In this document: positions 15,069 to 52,202 of the stretch, one piece after another | How the letters are laid out: each line of letters starts with the position of its first letter | Numbering within the stretch: the stretch's first letter is position 1 | From: Promethearchaeota archaeon | GTDB lineage: Archaea > Asgardarchaeota > Lokiarchaeia > Sigyniarchaeales > SOKP01 | Assembly (NCBI GenBank): GCA_019058365.1 | Contig: JAHPZE010000005.1 | Coordinates: 96,001 to 160,000, forward strand | Direction: 5' to 3' | DNA length: 64,000 nt | The notes under the pieces: generated by a model | What the model was told of the DNA's origin: nothing | The model's input: the letters and a program-made list of their open reading frames with translations, nothing else | Databases searched by the model: none | Program-made: the position numbers and the translations under genes

Positions 15069-16316
15069 TTGGAGGAGTTACTCATATCTGATATAGAATC
15101 TCAAAATTCAATACAGTATATTCAACAAAAAGATGAATTTGATTATTTGAAGAGTTTGATTAGCTCTGTTGATAAAGGGAAATGTGTTGGTATTTTATTA
15201 CACGGTCCTCCTGGTACTGGTAAGACTTTATTAGCAATTTCACTTGCACAGAATTTTAATTCTTCTTACTATATAATTGATGGATCTCCTGATCTTGATA
15301 GAAGAGATATTGAAGGTAATTGGGAACTTATTAAAGGAGCAACCAAATTTAACTATGGACCATTAACTTTAGCAATTAAAGATGCGAATAAACGTGGAAT
15401 TTCCTTTGTTATCATTAATGAAATAAATGCTATAAGAGAGAATGAACAAATATCTTTAAACTCGTTATTATCTGAATACCACATCAATTTAATCTCTAAG
15501 GCGTTTGAGAAACATGAACTAAGTTCTAAAAGTAAGTTAATAATAATCGGAACCATGAATAAGGGAGTTGCTGGAATAAATAAACTTCAAGAAGCATTTG
15601 AAGATCGATTCATAATAAGCCCAGAAATAAATTACCCTTTAAAAAATAAGGAAATTGATATCGCTATTAAAATGTCAGGATGTAAAGAAAAAATCGCTGA
15701 AATTGTTGTAGATGCAGCCCGGCAAATAAGAAAACAAGCGATACAGGACTTCTCAATTACAAAAATCTTCTCAACTCGTTTGATTATTAATTTTTGTATG
15801 TTAATTTCCAAAATGCCTCCTAAATTTTTAAAAAATAATATTGAAAATGTAATCTTAAACAAACTTGGAAATACTCCTGAAGAAAAGAAGTCGATCGCAA
15901 TGATACTAGATGGTAAAATGTTTGAGAGTAAATTAAAAGAAGAACTAATTAATAAAGCAGGTGTTCCATTAGTATGGGAAGATGCTATTGATAATTGCTC
16001 AGTAGATCAGATTATTTTAAAGACCAAATCGTGTTTTGATAATTATATTAAGACTTGGGGGAGAGGAAATACAATTAAAAAAAATGGAAATATAATGTGG
16101 AAGCCATTACAATGGATGTGGAATAAAAATAGATTAATTTTACAAGAATATATCAAACTAACAGAATTATTAAGATTTCCAGTAATCTATAAACAAGAAA
16201 CAGGAAAAGATCATATCTACAATGAAGTATTGACATTGAATTACATTCGATGGCTTTACCAACAGAAAATAGAAGAATTAACAAATTTTATGGCAAAAAT
16301 ATTTCCAGTTATTTAG
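15069..16316 (+). CDS. MoxR-clade (CbbQ/NorQ/CobS-like, AAA_5) ATPase with C-terminal extension
   Basis: Walker A GPPGTGKT, Walker B variant VIINEIN, sensor-1 GTMN, Arg finger EDRF, sensor-2 FSTR. The start may be ATA 15084. Confidence 0.88.
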   Translation: MEELLISDIESQNSIQYIQQKDEFDYLKSLISSVDKGKCVGILLHGPPGTGKTLLAISLAQNFNSSYYIIDGSPDLDRRDIEGNWELIKGATKFNYGPLTLAIKDANKRGISFVIINEINAIRENEQISLNSLLSEYHINLISKAFEKHELSSKSKLIIIGTMNKGVAGINKLQEAFEDRFIISPEINYPLKNKEIDIAIKMSGCKEKIAEIVVDAARQIRKQAIQDFSITKIFSTRLIINFCMLISKMPPKFLKNNIENVILNKLGNTPEEKKSIAMILDGKMFESKLKEELINKAGVPLVWEDAIDNCSVDQIILKTKSCFDNYIKTWGRGNTIKKNGNIMWKPLQWMWNKNRLILQEYIKLTELLRFPVIYKQETGKDHIYNEVLTLNYIRWLYQQKIEELTNFMAKIFPVI

Positions 16317-16358: not shown

Positions 16359-18332
16359 ATGGCAGAATTATTTGATCTTTTTGAAAGAGATTTTTTTACT
16401 GATATTTTAGCACTAACTAATATTGGGAAAAGAATTAGTGGAAATAATGAAATCATGATCCAATTCTTAAATGGGGTAGAAGCAGTATATACAGATTGTA
16501 GATTTATCTACTTACCTACAAAATATAAATCAGAAATTAAAGATGCTCAAGGACTTGTAGCTCATGAAAGTGGACACATAGGGTATGGCTCATTTGAGCT
16601 TGCGTTCAAAAAGCTAATTGATACACTTGCTAATAAATATAAAATGCCTCATTTTTTTGTAAAAAACGTTGTAAATGTCGTTGAAGATGTAAGAGTTAAT
16701 GCTATTAATAATATAAAATTCCCAGGTTTTTACAGGAATCTAAGATTATTAACAAAAAGAATGTTACCTAGACTTATATCAAGGATTGAAAAAGCTAAAG
16801 ATATTTTACTCTACATTAATCTATTTCTTGAAGAATATGAAGGTTTTCAGTTGAAACCTACTATAAAAGATATCGAAATGAGTGGAGATGATTGGGAGGG
16901 AATTTCAGAAGTGAAAAAATTTCTATTTAAAAATTTAACTCCTAGTTCTTCAATTATTTCATGTGATTTATTATGTAAATTCCTCAAAAAGTATTTTTCA
17001 TTCGAAGAAATGAATACAACGAAGGATATTAATGGTCTTCAAGGTAAAAATAACAACACCATCCATCAAATCGAAAATTTATCTACAAATAAAAAAAATC
17101 AAGACAAAACTAAATTAGATAGAACTAGTGAAGAACTAATTGAAAAACTAAAAGACATCAATTTAGAACCTGGAGATTTAGAGATATTAAGTGAAGAAGA
17201 TGAATCAAAAGAAGAGAATGACAAAAATAAAGCTAGAAAAAAGAAAAATAAAAGTAAAAAAAAGTCTGGAACAAAAAGTAAAAGAGAAAATACAAAAGAT
17301 AAAAATAAAATTATTGATACACCTGAAAATAAGGATTTAAAGAAAAGTCAAAAAAAGTTAGTAATTAGTGAATCACTTGAACAAGAAATGAATATTGCCT
17401 TCTTAGAATGTGATCTTAACCAAAAACAAAAAGAAACGAAATTAAAAGAAATATCAAAATTAGTAAAAGAAGCGGAAGAAGCAATGAAAGAACGTTTGAT
17501 TTTCTTAGAAAAGGGGGAATATTTAATTATTCCTCATAAAGATAAAGGAAAAAGGAATGTAAAAGATACTAAAATTGAAAATGAGAGCATGATTCCTTCG
17601 GGGATGTCTTATTCTCAAATAAAAGTAAAATATATGAATACGATTAAAAAAATGAAATTGATTTTTTCAGATTTAAAAAACAAATCGGGTAATGATTCAT
17701 TTCAAAAAAAAGGGCGATTAAACAATAAATTTGTAAAGGCGATTACAAGTGATTATAAATTTAAACAATGTTTTACAAGGAAATTGTTAAATAAAGAATT
17801 GAGATTATTAGTTTTAGTCGATATAAGTGGCAGTATGAGGGGGATAAAAGTACAAGCAGCTAAAATAGCGTTGGTTATGCTAAGTGAAGCTCTTGAAGAT
17901 ATTGCAAAGATTAGAATTGTATTATTTACAGGTACATTCCATGCATTAAATATTTTAGTAAAAGATTTTGAGGAAATGCTTAATCCTCGTAAAATTGATA
18001 AATTTGGTTGCCATTCAAGAGACGGACAAAATATTGATGGTGTATCAATTAAGCATGAAGCAAATAAATTAGATAAAGAGGATATAATAATTGTTATTTC
18101 AGATGGACAGCCTGCAGCTAATGGTGGCTACAATTTAAATGATGCGATTCCGGAGATTCACCAAGTGAGAAAAAAGTTTAAAACTTTCGCATTCTCTATA
18201 GATTCGCAAGGAGAATACTTAAATAAAATGTATGGGAATGATTGGGTTTTAACGAACTCTAGTAATCAAACAGAATTAGGGCAAAAGATGATAAAATTTT
18301 GTCAAATAATTGCCCGTGAATTTTTTAGATAG
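16359..18332 (+). CDS. CobT/NorD-like VWA protein with N-terminal HExxH domain and K/E-rich linker
   Basis: AHESGH...NVVEDVRVN N-domain, low-complexity charged linker, GRLN, MIDAS VDISGSM, ISDGQP. Confidence 0.85.
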   Translation: MAELFDLFERDFFTDILALTNIGKRISGNNEIMIQFLNGVEAVYTDCRFIYLPTKYKSEIKDAQGLVAHESGHIGYGSFELAFKKLIDTLANKYKMPHFFVKNVVNVVEDVRVNAINNIKFPGFYRNLRLLTKRMLPRLISRIEKAKDILLYINLFLEEYEGFQLKPTIKDIEMSGDDWEGISEVKKFLFKNLTPSSSIISCDLLCKFLKKYFSFEEMNTTKDINGLQGKNNNTIHQIENLSTNKKNQDKTKLDRTSEELIEKLKDINLEPGDLEILSEEDESKEENDKNKARKKKNKSKKKSGTKSKRENTKDKNKIIDTPENKDLKKSQKKLVISESLEQEMNIAFLECDLNQKQKETKLKEISKLVKEAEEAMKERLIFLEKGEYLIIPHKDKGKRNVKDTKIENESMIPSGMSYSQIKVKYMNTIKKMKLIFSDLKNKSGNDSFQKKGRLNNKFVKAITSDYKFKQCFTRKLLNKELRLLVLVDISGSMRGIKVQAAKIALVMLSEALEDIAKIRIVLFTGTFHALNILVKDFEEMLNPRKIDKFGCHSRDGQNIDGVSIKHEANKLDKEDIIIVISDGQPAANGGYNLNDAIPEIHQVRKKFKTFAFSIDSQGEYLNKMYGNDWVLTNSSNQTELGQKMIKFCQIIAREFFR

Positions 18333-47032: not shown

Positions 47033-47764
47033 ATGAATGCTATTGAGAAAGAAAAATTGCGTAATTTCCAAGAATTTATAGGATATAAATTTAATAAAGA
47101 AGCACTTTTAATTGAAGCCCTAACAACTCCAAGGTTAGCAAATGAAATTGGAAAACCTAGTTATGATTTTTTAGAAACATTAGGAGATGCTATAATTAAA
47201 ATTATACTTATTTTACAACTTTATAAGAAGGGAGTTAAAGATTCGGGGGAAATTACAAAAATAAAAGCAACTCTAGAAAGTGATAATGCTCTAAAAAATA
47301 TCGCAAATAAGATAGGTTTAGAAAAATATATTTTTAAGACGGAAAAACAGAGAGTAAAAGGAACTCGTATTTTAGCAGATATTTTTGAAGCATTATGTGG
47401 TGCTATTTTTCTTGATTCTAAATATAATCTGGATTTAGTAGAACAAAAAATGATTAATCCTTTTTATGAAGATTTGAATGTAATCATTCAGACGTCGATA
47501 ATTTCTAGTAAAAATGTATTATTAGAATTTTTACAGGAGAGATTTAAAACAAACATAATTATCGAACTTGAATATGAAAAAAGTGGAGTGGAGCATAATC
47601 CTAACTGGATCGCAAAAAATCCAAGAATTTTAGAACAAGAAAGTCGAGAGGAACTAGTTAAAATACCTGGAAGTCTAAAATCAACAAAGAGTAAATCAAA
47701 AAAAATGTCAGAAAAAGATCTTTATGTAAAAATCCTTAAATTTTTAGAAAAGAAAAAAAAATAA
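47033..47764 (+). CDS. rnc: Ribonuclease III with degenerate dsRBD
   Basis: IGYKF...LLIEALT, signature DFLETLGDA, ADIFEALCGAIFLD (all four catalytic acids present); C-terminal KNVLLEFLQ...SGVEH.P...SKK.SE dsRBD-like segment. Confidence 0.85.
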   Translation: MNAIEKEKLRNFQEFIGYKFNKEALLIEALTTPRLANEIGKPSYDFLETLGDAIIKIILILQLYKKGVKDSGEITKIKATLESDNALKNIANKIGLEKYIFKTEKQRVKGTRILADIFEALCGAIFLDSKYNLDLVEQKMINPFYEDLNVIIQTSIISSKNVLLEFLQERFKTNIIIELEYEKSGVEHNPNWIAKNPRILEQESREELVKIPGSLKSTKSKSKKMSEKDLYVKILKFLEKKKK

Positions 47765-47957: not shown

Positions 47958-49151
47958 ATGAGAGAATTTCAAATGTCTAAATCCCCAGTAATAGAAAAAA
48001 CTCCCCTTATGGAAGAATTTGAAGAAGAAACTGGAAAAGTATCAATTTGGAAGGGGGAACTATCAAAAAATTTTAAAAAGTGGGAAAAAAAAAAGAAACA
48101 AAATGAAATAAAACAAATGAAAGAAGATATTCTTTCTCAGTCTCGTATAGAAAAGAAAAAAATGAAAAAAGAATTCAGAGAGGATCGATTGGCAGGTAAG
48201 AGTTATGAGCATTTAATTGTGGTTGATGGGCTTCATAAGACTTATTTATTAGGTACCACGGCTGTTGCCGCGCTTCGAGGTATTGATTTAACAATAGATA
48301 ACGGAGATTTTGTTGATATTATGGGACCTTCTGGTTCTGGAAAGACAACACTCCTAAACTTGATCGGTGGATTAGATACCCCCACTCGAGGGAAAATCTT
48401 TTTAGAAGGGCGTAATATTTCAATGCTTTCAGATAATGATTTGGCAGAGATAAGACGTGAGAGAATTGGATTTGTTTTTCAGTTCTATAACCTTCTACCA
48501 CAGATGACAGCTATGGAAAATGTTATGGTACCTTTACATTTTTCAGGGAAATTAAGTCGTCGAGGTAAAAGGAAAAAAGCAATGGATCTCTTGAGATTGG
48601 TAGGTTTAGATGAACGAGCACATCATACTCCCTCTGAATTGAGTGGCGGTGAACAGCAGAGAGTAGCGATAGCTCGGGCTTTCGCAAATGATCCTGCAAT
48701 CTGTGTTCTTGATGAACCTACGGGTGATTTGGATTCTAAAACGGGTGTAATGGTTCTAAATCTTCTTAGAGATTTAAACAAAAGAGGTGCTACCTTTGTT
48801 GCGGTAAGCCATGATGCCGCAGTGTCGGAATTTGCGACTAGAGTGTTCCATATGAAAGATGGAAAACTTACTCATGAAGGAAAAATAGGAGGCTTAAAAG
48901 AAACTGAGATTATGCAACTTAAGAGAAGACAAGAAACAGAAATAAATAAAGAGAAATGTAAAAGTAAAATTTTTCAATACCTCTATGCAAATCAAGGTAA
49001 AGCTGAAATTCCAGTTAGTGATATTAAAAGCAGCATTCCAAATTCTATAGTTATGAATTTGCCAGAACACTTTAATGACATTTTACAAGAACTTATTGAA
49101 GAGAATAACTTTTCTGGCAAAATTGAAGGAGAAATTTTGATTTTAAAATAA
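47958..49151 (+). CDS. Type VII (LolD/MacB/FtsE-like) ABC ATPase with N- and C-terminal extensions
   Basis: GPSGSGKT, GFVFQFYNL, LSGGEQQRVAIARA, LDEPTGDLD, VSHD; about 85-aa N-extension and about 70-aa winged-helix-like C-extension. Confidence 0.95.
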   Translation: MREFQMSKSPVIEKTPLMEEFEEETGKVSIWKGELSKNFKKWEKKKKQNEIKQMKEDILSQSRIEKKKMKKEFREDRLAGKSYEHLIVVDGLHKTYLLGTTAVAALRGIDLTIDNGDFVDIMGPSGSGKTTLLNLIGGLDTPTRGKIFLEGRNISMLSDNDLAEIRRERIGFVFQFYNLLPQMTAMENVMVPLHFSGKLSRRGKRKKAMDLLRLVGLDERAHHTPSELSGGEQQRVAIARAFANDPAICVLDEPTGDLDSKTGVMVLNLLRDLNKRGATFVAVSHDAAVSEFATRVFHMKDGKLTHEGKIGGLKETEIMQLKRRQETEINKEKCKSKIFQYLYANQGKAEIPVSDIKSSIPNSIVMNLPEHFNDILQELIEENNFSGKIEGEILILK

Positions 49152-49199: not shown

Positions 49200-52100
49200 A
49201 TGACACAAATAAAGCTAATTTTTAAATATGCATTCCAAGATTTAAGTAAACAAAAGATTAGAACCTTACTAGCAATAATAGGAATGTTAATTTCCATTGG
49301 CTTGTTAACTGTCGTCTTATTCTTATCTGACTCTATTTCTATGGGGTATGCAGATTATCTTACCATTGAAGCAGGTAATCAAGATGCTGTTATCTCTGTA
49401 AGACATTATTACGAAGAACCAAGTAATAGATCATCGTATTTTGACTATGATCCCCTAATTGAGACTATTCAATCTTCAACTAGTATTATAGAGAATTTTA
49501 TCCCGAGAATGGAAATAACGGGATCTGTTAATATTTCCGAAGGTTTCCATACCACAAATCTACTAGATGAAGAAGAATCGTGTATAATATCAGCAATTAA
49601 TTTTTCTTTTGAAAATGATATAAATTTTGGGACATTTGTAAGTCCAGTATTTAATAAATTACTTGATTTAACTGAATTACCTTCAAATCATTGTGCAATC
49701 TATTATGGGTTTAATGATGTTATCAAATATTCTGAAGGTAATACCATTAAAATATTCATGGAATTAACTAATGGAAATACAACAATAAATCGAACAAAAT
49801 CTTTAATAATTGATAAAATCTTTGATTTCAATTTAAAATGGTCTGCTGAGTATCGTAGTAGGAATTTAATTATAGTAGATATTAATACGCTATACCAAAT
49901 TTTTGGTTATGACGAATTTAAGGGTAAATGTAGCGATTTGATATTAACTTTTAAAGAATCTAGTAAACTCTATGATATTAGGAGTATTGAATTAGCTACG
50001 ATAAATGTAAAGAATATTGTTAATGATATTCAAATTGCAATAGGAATTGATGAATATAGCATTGATTTACCTAAATTAAGAGCATTATCATCTGCTGAAT
50101 TTTTAAGTGTATTTATAGTTATAGTGTTTGTGTTTGTTTCAATTGTAGCTATGCTAATTTCCGGTGTTCTCATCAATGGAATATTAAAAACTTCAGTGGA
50201 GGAGCGAATTCGAGAATTTGGGATATTCAGAACGTTAGGTGCGAATAAAAAGTATAATCTTATGATAGTATTGATGCAAGGCTTTTTATTATGCAATTTT
50301 GGGGCAATTTCAGGAATAATAACTGCATTTTTTCTTTCCATATATGTAATAATACCTTTTGCAAATACTGTGGTTTCCGGCAGTATGTTAGGTTTAGGTA
50401 CAATACCTTTCTCTTTCACTTGGTGGTCTGTTATAATATCATATATCATGGGTATTAGTGTGGGGATGATTGTGAGTATCGCTCCTGCTTTAAAAGTGAT
50501 GCGTCTTCAATTGATTGAATCAATTCATCCATATCGCCATGAAGATACATTATATCATCTACAAAAAAAAGCATCAGTAAATTACAAATTAATCTTAGCA
50601 GGATTAATTTTGGCATTTAATGGTATATTTGTGTTTTTTGTTATACCGAGAATTATGGTTGCGAGTGATATGACTCTCTTTGCTGGTACATTGGTTGCAA
50701 TTTTACTTATATTTAATATTGGATTAACTCTTGCTGGATTAGGTTTAATTCCTCTAATATTAAGGTTAATAATTCAATTATTCAGACCAATATCAAGAAG
50801 ATTGCATAATATTATTAAGATTTTTGTTTTTCGATATCAACGTAGAAATTCGAGTACTATCATGATCTTTGCATTGTCTTTCTCTTTTGTTATTTTTACA
50901 TCATCTCTAGTTAATACTTTATCAGCACAAGTTGGTGCTTCAACTAAATTAAGATATGGATCAGACATCTTAATTGAAACTACTGGATGGAAAGAACTCG
51001 AAAATGGATTTGGAGGGGGTGGTTTTGGTTTCATGGCTACTAGTGAGGATTCAGAACAATCCGGTTTAAATTTGTATAGTACTCAAACATATCTTGATTC
51101 TATTAATCCAAATAGAATCATTACAACGGAGTTTGGACAAGAATTATTAGCTATGGATGGCATTGAGAAAGTGTCATCTGTGTTAGCAAGACCTTATCAA
51201 TTAACTCAAATTTATGCTGGAGAGGATAAAGAATTTGTGGCAGAAATTGGGGATTTTGCCGGATTAAGTACGCAAGAGATAACTTTAATAGGAATTGATG
51301 AAGAATATCCTTTCACAGTGAAAAGTGAGTACATAGAAATGACTTCTGGAAATGTAATTACCTCCTTTAACGATCTATTTCATAATAATCAATCGTATAC
51401 CTGCATAATTTCTGAAGCAATAGCTTTAGCAATGTCTTTATTAATTGGTGATAAAATTCGAATTGTAATCCAAAGAGGAGACGAATTAGAAGTGTATCCT
51501 TTCATAATAGCAGGAACCGCGAAAAGTATGCCGGGATTTTCTCGAGAATTTAGTGGATCAAGTACGGGGGCTTCGAATGGAGGGGTGTTAATCTCTCAAG
51601 CAACATATATCGAAATAATGGATATTCCTCCTGTCCCTTATTTGGATAGAATTTTCATTAAACTTAGAGAAGATAAATTATCAGAAGCTCATAATATAGA
51701 GGATTTAATTGATGAATATTATCAAACTGATTATAATTATGAAATATCCAATCTAGCAAGAATGATAGCACAACAAGAATCCGCATTTTCTGTATTAGAT
51801 ACTCTTTTTACTCTCATAGCTCTTACTACAGTATTTATTTGTATTTTTGGATTGCTATCTTCATCTTATTCAACTATTATTGAAAGGAAGAAAGAAATCG
51901 GTATTGTTCGAACTTTAGGGTTAAAAGGTAGAGATATTAATCGCTTATTTATAATTGAATCCTTAATAATTATGCTTAGTAGTGGAACTATAGGAATAAT
52001 TATAGGATGGGTAACTAGTTGGTTGGTTTCTTGGAATTTGTTGGGTACATTAGTGGGGATGCCAAATGTATTGTATGTTCCGTGGTTTAATATAATACTG

Positions 52101-52202
52101 ATCTATTTACTTTCTGTAATCATGATTTTTTTCGGAATGATAATATTGTTAAGAAAAGCCAGAAAACAGAAAATAGTTGAGATTTATAGAGAAACAATTT
52201 AA
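49200..52202 (+). CDS. FtsX/MacB-like ABC permease (internally duplicated)
   Basis: KIRTLLAIIG, EERIREFGIFRTLGA and IERKKEIGIVRTLG; two large extracytoplasmic domains. Confidence 0.92.
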   Translation: MTQIKLIFKYAFQDLSKQKIRTLLAIIGMLISIGLLTVVLFLSDSISMGYADYLTIEAGNQDAVISVRHYYEEPSNRSSYFDYDPLIETIQSSTSIIENFIPRMEITGSVNISEGFHTTNLLDEEESCIISAINFSFENDINFGTFVSPVFNKLLDLTELPSNHCAIYYGFNDVIKYSEGNTIKIFMELTNGNTTINRTKSLIIDKIFDFNLKWSAEYRSRNLIIVDINTLYQIFGYDEFKGKCSDLILTFKESSKLYDIRSIELATINVKNIVNDIQIAIGIDEYSIDLPKLRALSSAEFLSVFIVIVFVFVSIVAMLISGVLINGILKTSVEERIREFGIFRTLGANKKYNLMIVLMQGFLLCNFGAISGIITAFFLSIYVIIPFANTVVSGSMLGLGTIPFSFTWWSVIISYIMGISVGMIVSIAPALKVMRLQLIESIHPYRHEDTLYHLQKKASVNYKLILAGLILAFNGIFVFFVIPRIMVASDMTLFAGTLVAILLIFNIGLTLAGLGLIPLILRLIIQLFRPISRRLHNIIKIFVFRYQRRNSSTIMIFALSFSFVIFTSSLVNTLSAQVGASTKLRYGSDILIETTGWKELENGFGGGGFGFMATSEDSEQSGLNLYSTQTYLDSINPNRIITTEFGQELLAMDGIEKVSSVLARPYQLTQIYAGEDKEFVAEIGDFAGLSTQEITLIGIDEEYPFTVKSEYIEMTSGNVITSFNDLFHNNQSYTCIISEAIALAMSLLIGDKIRIVIQRGDELEVYPFIIAGTAKSMPGFSREFSGSSTGASNGGVLISQATYIEIMDIPPVPYLDRIFIKLREDKLSEAHNIEDLIDEYYQTDYNYEISNLARMIAQQESAFSVLDTLFTLIALTTVFICIFGLLSSSYSTIIERKKEIGIVRTLGLKGRDINRLFIIESLIIMLSSGTIGIIIGWVTSWLVSWNLLGTLVGMPNVLYVPWFNIILIYLLSVIMIFFGMIILLRKARKQKIVEIYRETI

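Follow-up and report, generated by a model that had tools for sequence, protein, structure and literature searches.

Eukaryotic protein networks are characterized by small adaptor domains that are used promiscuously, such as SAP, HeH, WW and UBA, and SAP (PF02037), HeH (Src1/Man1; Rho N-terminal HeH) and LEM domains are generic DNA or RNA tethers. Here we analyse a 64,000-nucleotide stretch of a Lokiarchaeia genome (contig JAHPZE010000005.1, positions 96,001 to 160,000; the window), in which an ATP-binding cassette (ABC) transporter ATPase and a MoxR-type AAA+ ATPase each carry a similar short segment. A preliminary description of the window had aligned the two segments and proposed that they are one mobile, lineage-specific module. 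Judged from sequence, they represent the same hitherto undescribed protein mini-domain, ~30-45 residues long. The module family is terminal or tandem in its hosts, restricted to one lineage and conserved at the protein level. The features at the centre of the analysis are:

47958..49151, + strand: ABC transporter ATPase gene, MacB/LolD-like, 397 aa (open reading frame, ORF; Pfam ABC_tran, PF00005, aa 106-255, E 1e-35)
48003..48104, + strand: module copy 1, N-terminus of the ABC ATPase (profile core 48006-48092; earlier-noted segment 48018-48083)
15069..16316, + strand: MoxR/CbbQ-type AAA+ ATPase gene, 415 aa (Pfam AAA_5, PF07728, aa 42-181, 1e-20; CbbQ_C, PF08406, aa 195-277, 1e-5)
16188..16256, + strand: probable module copy 2, diverged, within the 135-aa C-extension of the MoxR ATPase (ortholog and profile evidence)

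Both segments sit in extensions, as had been claimed, because Pfam places the ATPase folds elsewhere in both proteins (ABC_tran at aa 106-255; AAA_5 plus CbbQ_C at aa 42-277). The ABC segment is FEEETGKVSIWKGELSKNFKKW, the translation of window positions 48018-48083 (+ strand) and residues 21-42 of the ATPase, in its N-extension. Further copies were sought in the six-frame translation of the source genome (4.74 Mb, 29.5% GC) with a loose pattern consisting of ETGK, two residues, an aliphatic and an aromatic residue, which gave two more striking copies, at the N-terminus of a receiver-domain protein and at the extreme C-terminus of RNA polymerase subunit A' (RpoA'). With these two and the ABC copy as input, a hidden Markov model (HMM) needed a single round to converge, yielding nine significant copies in eight unrelated proteins (i-E-values of ~5e-15 to 8e-10). 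Besides the ABC ATPase (N-terminal) and RpoA' (C-terminal), the hosts are three RHH-HisKA-receiver paralogs (N-terminal), a 338-aa protein with tandem copies on K/P-rich linkers, a GldG/IFT52-GIFT-like protein (C-terminal) and a protein with four transmembrane (TM) segments (in the C-terminal tail). The module profile reads M-x-x-[YF]-E-x-E-T-G-K-x-A-I-W-x-G-x-x-T-K-x-[FY]-x-x-W-K-K. The consensus first drawn from the two window segments holds in its overall pattern, save for its L and N positions, which are coincidental and vary in the family (I/E/V/L and G/N/A/S). Copies vary freely at synonymous sites yet keep T, G, K, A, W, G, T and W, and conservation therefore acts on the protein and not on a DNA repeat. 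A DNA repeat or mobile element was ruled out by these synonymous differences, together with the lack of extended nucleotide identity among the copies. A weak partial match, LGKKAYIKGKFTKSFKEW, lies internally (aa 323-342; E 0.003, broad profile) in L008 (G000:C41:62789-64303, minus strand), a protein of 505 aa that includes a NucS_C/PDDEXK nuclease domain.

The ABC segment almost certainly belongs to this family. The HMM made from this segment and two other proteins gives it 60.8 bits (E 2e-16) in the six-frame genome search, and a profile made solely from other proteins (216 instances) still gives it 34.8 bits (E 1e-8). The host is assigned to the MacB/LolD type by its ABC_tran domain and by the adjoining FtsX/MacB_PCD permease, with which it forms an operon as the first gene. 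Its other parts and its partner are:

48105..48230, + strand: K/E-rich charged stretch, putative linker from the module to the nucleotide-binding domain (read from the sequence)
48855..49148, + strand: C-terminal extension of the ABC ATPase, ~aa 300-397 (roughly 100 aa), not the module; no Pfam match
49200..52202, + strand: FtsX/MacB-type permease, partner of the ATPase (Pfam FtsX, PF02687, 5e-31; MacB_PCD, PF12704, 6e-10)

Orthologs of the ABC ATPase were found in 50 of the 61 genomes of the order. For genera g1, g14, g15, g17 and g18 of its own family (f1) the ortholog alignments begin at residue 2-15 and include the module. Those for genus g13 and families f2, f3 and f4, whose ORFs measure 311-370 aa, begin only at residue 64-97 and lack the module. 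The C-terminal extension is retained in all these orthologs, module-bearing or not, the alignments reaching residue 394-397 in all four families of the order. Since the orthologs differ in the presence of the module while this extension is constant, the module is mobile, in agreement with the original proposal, and the ortholog comparison shows that the ABC ATPase gained it recently, only within part of its own family. Directly upstream of the operon lies a gene for an RNase III-domain protein (243 aa, window 47033-47764; PF00636, 2e-17) with a K-rich tail.

The MoxR/CbbQ assignment is given by the AAA_5 core, the CbbQ_C lid and the adjoining downstream gene for a VWA-domain protein, the usual partner of MoxR ATPases:

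16359..18332, + strand: VWA-domain protein (Pfam VWA_CoxE, CobT_C, VWA_2)

The MoxR segment, YKQETGKDHIYNEVLTLNYIRW (translation of window positions 16188-16253, + strand), lies near the end of the protein, in the C-extension. Its ungapped alignment with FEEETGKVSIWKGELSKNFKKW has the positions and the 8 of 22 identities reported earlier, as confirmed from the translations, and a BLOSUM62 score of 47. Taken as a pair, the two match no better than chance: in eight residue-shuffled versions of the window's 42 ORFs, 0-3 equally good 22-mer diagonals (mean 1.0) occurred per shuffled window. In a BLASTP comparison of the two ATPases the segment pair was absent from the high-scoring segment pairs, which were of P-loop type only. 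The resemblance could therefore reflect chance or convergence, the MoxR segment then being a piece of a MoxR-specific C-terminal domain, unrelated to the module, in which ETGK...W recurs by accident. The scores of the MoxR copy alone (12.0 bits, E 0.09, against the nine-copy profile; 15.0 bits, E 0.006, against the 216-instance profile) are consistent with such an origin, as are its lack of the conserved A, the turn G and the K after T, and its embedding in a conserved 135-aa extension specific to this MoxR group (4 same-genus genomes and 9 database proteins). However, all 13 of these orthologs match the profile in the same register, keeping Y..T.K..I[YF]...LTL.YI.W. Several are nearer the consensus than the window copy, the best, YKKDTGKNYLFRGEITLNYIKW, reaching 21.7 bits (E 4e-4 at genome scale), and three have the hairpin Gly restored. 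Comparison of the module alignment (A1) with the alignment of the MoxR C-extension (A2) by hhalign gave a probability of 93.2% (E 3e-7), with a match that spans 29 columns and falls where expected. The MoxR copy ranks directly behind the accepted members, with no unrelated genome protein above it, and lies near a terminus as other copies do. We thus consider chance or convergence unlikely and the MoxR segment probably a diverged member of the family. Its kinship with the ABC segment is accepted because of the family evidence, namely the extra genomic copies, the conservation of the module in orthologs of both ATPases and the profile-profile match. Both checks by which the earlier proposal might have been refuted came out in its favour, as the additional occurrences lie far beyond chance and the orthologs of each ATPase retain the segment. 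The idea that both ATPases carry the same module is accordingly clear-cut for the ABC copy, whereas for the diverged MoxR copy it depends on profile evidence, the single-sequence score not being significant.

The nine-copy profile was also searched against 1.84 billion proteins, represented by clusters at 50% identity (E<=1e-3). It retrieved 460 representatives, 43 of them at E<=1e-10; 460 is a lower bound, because the profile has only 35 positions. Architecture, partner clusters and Pfam partners were counted on the best 150 of the 460, to which the following counts refer. The module is N-terminal in 39, C-terminal or nearly so in 44, tandem in 37, stand-alone in 29 (<=80 aa, some of them fragments) and internal in 1, so that 149 of 150 are terminal, tandem or stand-alone, as predicted for a module carried at the ends of unrelated proteins. 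With the module masked, the 150 proteins fall into 84 sequence clusters, and a single Pfam scan recorded 67 partner families. Response_reg and HisKA are partners in 14 and 8 proteins, respectively, and in the largest host family (34/150) the module immediately precedes an RHH strand. Further Pfam partners include LRR, RNA_pol_Rpb1, zinc ribbons (among them CPWC), NosD/beta-helix, Ras/Roc/Arf, Ribosomal_L13e, SWIM, HTH_Tnp, a Cap4-nuclease-LRR-reverse transcriptase combination, a BBS7/BBS2-like propeller, dNMP kinase and Phage_Mu_F; a C2H2-like finger and a NucS-like protein are also hosts. One metagenomic protein of 329 aa (P0026) is ribosomal protein eL13 (PF01294, aa 48-130) with two C-terminal module copies.

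The flanks of the module contain 17.9% K and 12.2% E, against backgrounds of 8.7% and 7.2%, and SPKK-like motifs ([ST]P[KR][KR]) occur there at 0.55 vs 0.06 per 1000 aa, a ~9-fold enrichment. The flanks also gave HC2 histone-H1-like matches. The protein L005 (G000:C24:99082-100095, minus strand) and its relatives P0003-P0027 consist of a confidently predicted 150-aa N-domain followed by 1-4 pairs of A-type and B-type modules, the latter with the sequence Y[RK]KETGKxxYY[RK]GKPTKN[YF]xxYL, on K/P-rich, SPKK-like linkers; this family looks like a chromatin-type protein.

The module is confined to one order of Lokiarchaeia/Promethearchaeia, where it occurs in three of four families, and to some of their viruses. 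In a sample of 300 genomes of the phylum, all 68 genomes of f1 were positive (3-24 matches per genome), as were 7/7 of f2. Among the ~225 genomes of 28 other families none was positive save for one marginal match (8e-4), which bears out the suggested lineage specificity. For the two remaining families of the order, f4 was positive in 4/4 genomes and the single f3 genome (66% complete) gave no match. Named database members of the family are labelled 'Promethearchaeia / Candidatus Lokiarchaeia archaeon'. In a scan of one genome per prokaryotic species, the best 80 loci carried Promethearchaeota/-ia or other Asgard labels, or 'uncultured archaeon'/'archaeon', with one exception. This exception (L151; JAANXH010000013.1, a metagenome-assembled genome labelled Candidatus Woesearchaeota; 42% identity to the query alignment) may stem from mis-binning of the contig or from a transfer. 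Complete single-contig genomes seem to be present in the order, and some of these may derive from cultured strains.

Two host fusions can be followed across the order. The RpoA' C-tail carries one copy in f1 (ORFs of ~975-990 aa) and one in genera g5 and g9 of f2. In f2 genus g2 (L059:138-3614 in G025; also G032 and G028) it carries three spaced tandem copies, in ORFs of 1158-1217 aa, each with a longer first helix (L[ST]xE[DE]xxxxY). Families f1 and f4 have the RHH-HisKA-receiver fusion. The module also forms the end of 82-89-aa proteins encoded on two IMG/VR viral contigs:

L077:3818-4087 (UViG_3300025740_000089): viral module ORF
L078:3854-4102 (UViG_3300027901_000002): viral module ORF

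One of these genes lies between those for an HK97-type major head protein and a head-tail adaptor, and the other adjoins a DNA polymerase gene. A separate observation concerns the rpoA' gene of the source genome (C52:2085-2114; L075:286-315), which contains a 30-nt in-frame insertion with a TAA stop, located precisely where the codons for universally conserved GHFGH and IELA meet and absent from two related genomes. The unconstrained RNA fold has a bulge-helix-bulge (BHB) layout, in which a 4-bp helix is flanked by a 5-nt bulge with the 3' junction and by a 3-nt bulge with the 5' junction behind its second base; on the outer sides a 3-bp exon-exon helix adjoins the 5-nt bulge and a 6-bp intron hairpin the 3-nt bulge. 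An archaeal BHB intron within an essential mRNA is one candidate reading of the insertion, and an assembly artefact is the other.

Structure prediction gives the module an autonomous fold of helix, beta-hairpin, helix. AlphaFold2 was run on the isolated module with a 46-sequence alignment (A4, ABC copy first) and gave a mean pLDDT of 79.8, with a helix at 10-19, a two-residue hairpin at 24-25/28-29 and a second helix at 31-43 (A4 numbering); the first helix corresponds to aa 16-25 of the ABC ATPase. The helix-hairpin-helix organization guessed earlier from size alone agrees with this model. In the prediction of the full tandem protein the same unit recurs (pLDDT 84-91, linkers <50), and a single long helix is common to neighbouring A and B modules. 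Column statistics from the 216 instances show 96% K/R at K10, a W14 conserved at 80% and a net charge of +3.5 over columns 7-27. We infer that M1, [YF]4, I13, [FY]22 and W25 form a small core and that T8-G9, G16 and T19 provide helix caps and the turn. K10, W14, R/K15, K17 and K20, in the hairpin and at the start of helix 2, are candidates for a basic-aromatic contact patch.

Searches for relatives of known function were negative. Foldseek found no match to the module model in the PDB, the ESM Atlas gave no usable match, and a wide VIA-align search with this model, whose small size allows no firm verdict, gave a best Z of 2.9 (2.2 for MerR/RacA/LysR). A profile search of PDB sequences returned trivial matches of 14-19 residues only (E>=0.09). 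In Pfam (E<=1), NCBIfam (E<=1) and PHROGs no family covers the module, the host domains alone being named; a uS10 hit (TIGR01046) on one module was dismissed as chance (17 bits vs a cut-off of 96). The N-domain of the tandem-module protein has a generic ferredoxin/ACT/RRM-like fold (VIA-align, top Z 8.5) that gives no functional lead, and Foldseek suggestions of Med18/20 and CYTH for it were rejected (E 0.01-0.06, TM ~0.1-0.2). Literature searches found no description of the module or of any Rpo1N tail in Asgard archaea, although such absence is not proof.

The module is cytoplasmic, with two small ambiguous exceptions (P0119, P0142), because of the position of its copies in three kinds of host. 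Many lie at the extreme N-terminus, beginning among the first 10-30 residues, of proteins without a signal peptide. In type-I surface proteins (P0014, P0137/P0162) the module follows a signal peptide, ectodomain, TM segment and acidic linker, and in the four-TM host the N-terminus and a loop are basic.

As the best overall explanation, in which we place somewhat less than even confidence, we propose a single mobile mini-domain family that serves as a docking handle for nucleic acid or another polyanion. Domain shuffling has placed the module, via K/E-rich flexible linkers, on the cytoplasmic N- and C-termini of many unrelated proteins, where it would act as a tethered handle. Its ligand would be a polyanion, most likely nucleic acid, and the module would keep its hosts near DNA or RNA, working like SAP or HeH domains while being unrelated to them by descent. 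We assign this ligand tentatively. Nucleic acid is preferred because the module precedes an RHH strand in the largest host family, because the RNA polymerase A' tail carries it, and because other hosts include eL13, SWIM, zinc finger and ribbon proteins, HTH_Tnp, nucleases, reverse transcriptase, a NucS-like protein and dNMP kinase. The viral module ORF next to a DNA polymerase, the positively charged basic-aromatic patch, the K-rich SPKK-like flanks and the HC2-like matches also argue for it.

Several observations weigh against this proposal. Neither the structural nor the sequence searches (Pfam, NCBIfam, PDB, Foldseek, VIA-align, ESM Atlas) yielded a relative with known function. About half of the hosts have no obvious nucleic-acid role, among them the MacB-type ABC ATPase, MoxR, Ras/Roc, LRR and NosD beta-helix surface proteins, the BBS-like propeller, the GldG/IFT52-like protein, Mu-F and the cytoplasmic tails of receptors. 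The K-richness is in part the background of a genome of 29.5% GC, and homologous representatives inflate the SPKK-like enrichment. Most of the basic residues are gone from the MoxR form, which may for that reason now be a structural part of its own C-terminal domain.

Such heterogeneity of hosts, from type-I surface tails and the two ATPases to Ras/Roc GTPases and LRR proteins, would also be expected if the same family were a protein-protein docking tag that gathers diverse proteins by self-pairing or on one cytoplasmic hub (a scaffold, a cytoskeletal filament or a chaperone-like factor). The directly adjacent A-B pairs with their shared long helix fit a pairing unit, and W14, probably surface-exposed on the hairpin, recalls peptide-binding mini-domains. 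Small viral proteins that carry the module are as expected for a hijacked host interaction. The tandem arrays on K-rich SPKK-like linkers and the RHH adjacency, however, fit nucleic acid better. We regard a protein tag, the reading first put forward for the two segments, as possible, with a hub nearly as likely as nucleic acid to be the ligand. We consider it very improbable that the module is a peripheral membrane anchor, with the basic-aromatic patch resting on acidic lipid head groups. The net positive charge, the conserved Trp and Tyr/Phe and the membrane-associated hosts (the ABC ATPase, TM-protein tails, small GTPases) would suit an anchor, but the predicted fold is compact, with aromatics spaced as a core and not as an amphipathic helix; integral membrane hosts need no anchor, and RNA polymerase, eL13 and RHH regulators are unlikely to reside at the membrane.

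A bolder version, which we regard as possible, is that the module is a Lokiarchaeia-specific 'address tag' for a single target, either the nucleoid or one hub protein, that has been captured by viruses. RNA polymerase, eL13, two-component regulators, small GTPases, transporter ATPases and receptor tails would then all be tethered to one target. If so, it would represent a lineage-invented spatial organization in the closest prokaryotic relatives of eukaryotes, resembling SAP/HeH/LEM tethers or a landing pad like the C-terminal domain (CTD) of eukaryotic RNA polymerase II. The invention of small adaptor domains is part of the story of cellular complexity, and an undescribed domain of that style is now defined in Lokiarchaeia. 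The profile can be used for annotation at once and would cover several hundred 'hypothetical' proteins or unexplained extensions. The identity of the ligand would tell whether these archaea organize their cytoplasm or their nucleoid by a dedicated tag, and a module of 30-45 residues with a predicted autonomous fold is a clean handle for biochemistry in the few cultivable Asgard archaea.

Comparison with described domains places the module as a new family within a known class, that of small promiscuous terminal domains. Several familiar candidates were discarded on their known features: in WW domains the Trp spacing is 20-22 (11 in the module, for which helices are predicted), villin headpieces are all-helical with a different spacing, the LKKT motif of WH2 is missing, Myb/SANT is ruled out by Trp spacing, and a P-loop was rejected on its pattern. 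The second half of the module, a hairpin and helix with a Phe/Tyr and Trp core, resembles the beta-beta-alpha zinc finger and the 'wing' of winged-helix domains. Its weak structural neighbours, at noise level (Z 2.0-2.9), are mostly the helix-wing-helix parts of DNA-binding domains (FOXP3, MerR, RacA, LysR). Unlike a zinc finger or wing, it has an extra N-terminal helix as part of the unit and no Cys/His ligands, the columns of the 216 instances showing no conserved Cys or His of a C2H2-type finger. SHOCT (PF09851), known from bacteria and archaea, is likewise very small, mostly terminal, present on many unrelated proteins, sometimes duplicated and of unknown function, but differs in motif, lineage range and predicted fold. 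No SHOCT match was found on the window or genome copies, and the SHOCT domains in 2/150 representatives are separate domains without overlap with the module.

For the RpoA' tail only, an analogy can be drawn with the CTD of eukaryotic RNA polymerase II, since both are repeated, linker-borne appendages on the largest-subunit lineage (1-3 copies in RpoA'). The archaeal tail differs in that it sits on the C-terminus of A', the N-terminal half of Rpb1, and not on A'', in that it consists of folded modules instead of heptads, and in that the module is common to dozens of non-polymerase proteins; no homology is implied. Pfam matched neither SAP nor HeH (PF02037, PF12949) at E<=1 on the eight module-bearing proteins, and the module signature (ETGK, AIW-G, TK-F-W) is unrelated to theirs and to that of LEM. 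Its connector also sets it apart, being a predicted beta-hairpin with an invariant Gly. On the gelsolins of the source genome the module HMM gave no match. The closest likeness in design is nonetheless to SAP, HeH and LEM, which share with it a length of ~35 residues, two helices with a short connector, and fusion through flexible linkers to diverse termini, including the tails of membrane proteins.

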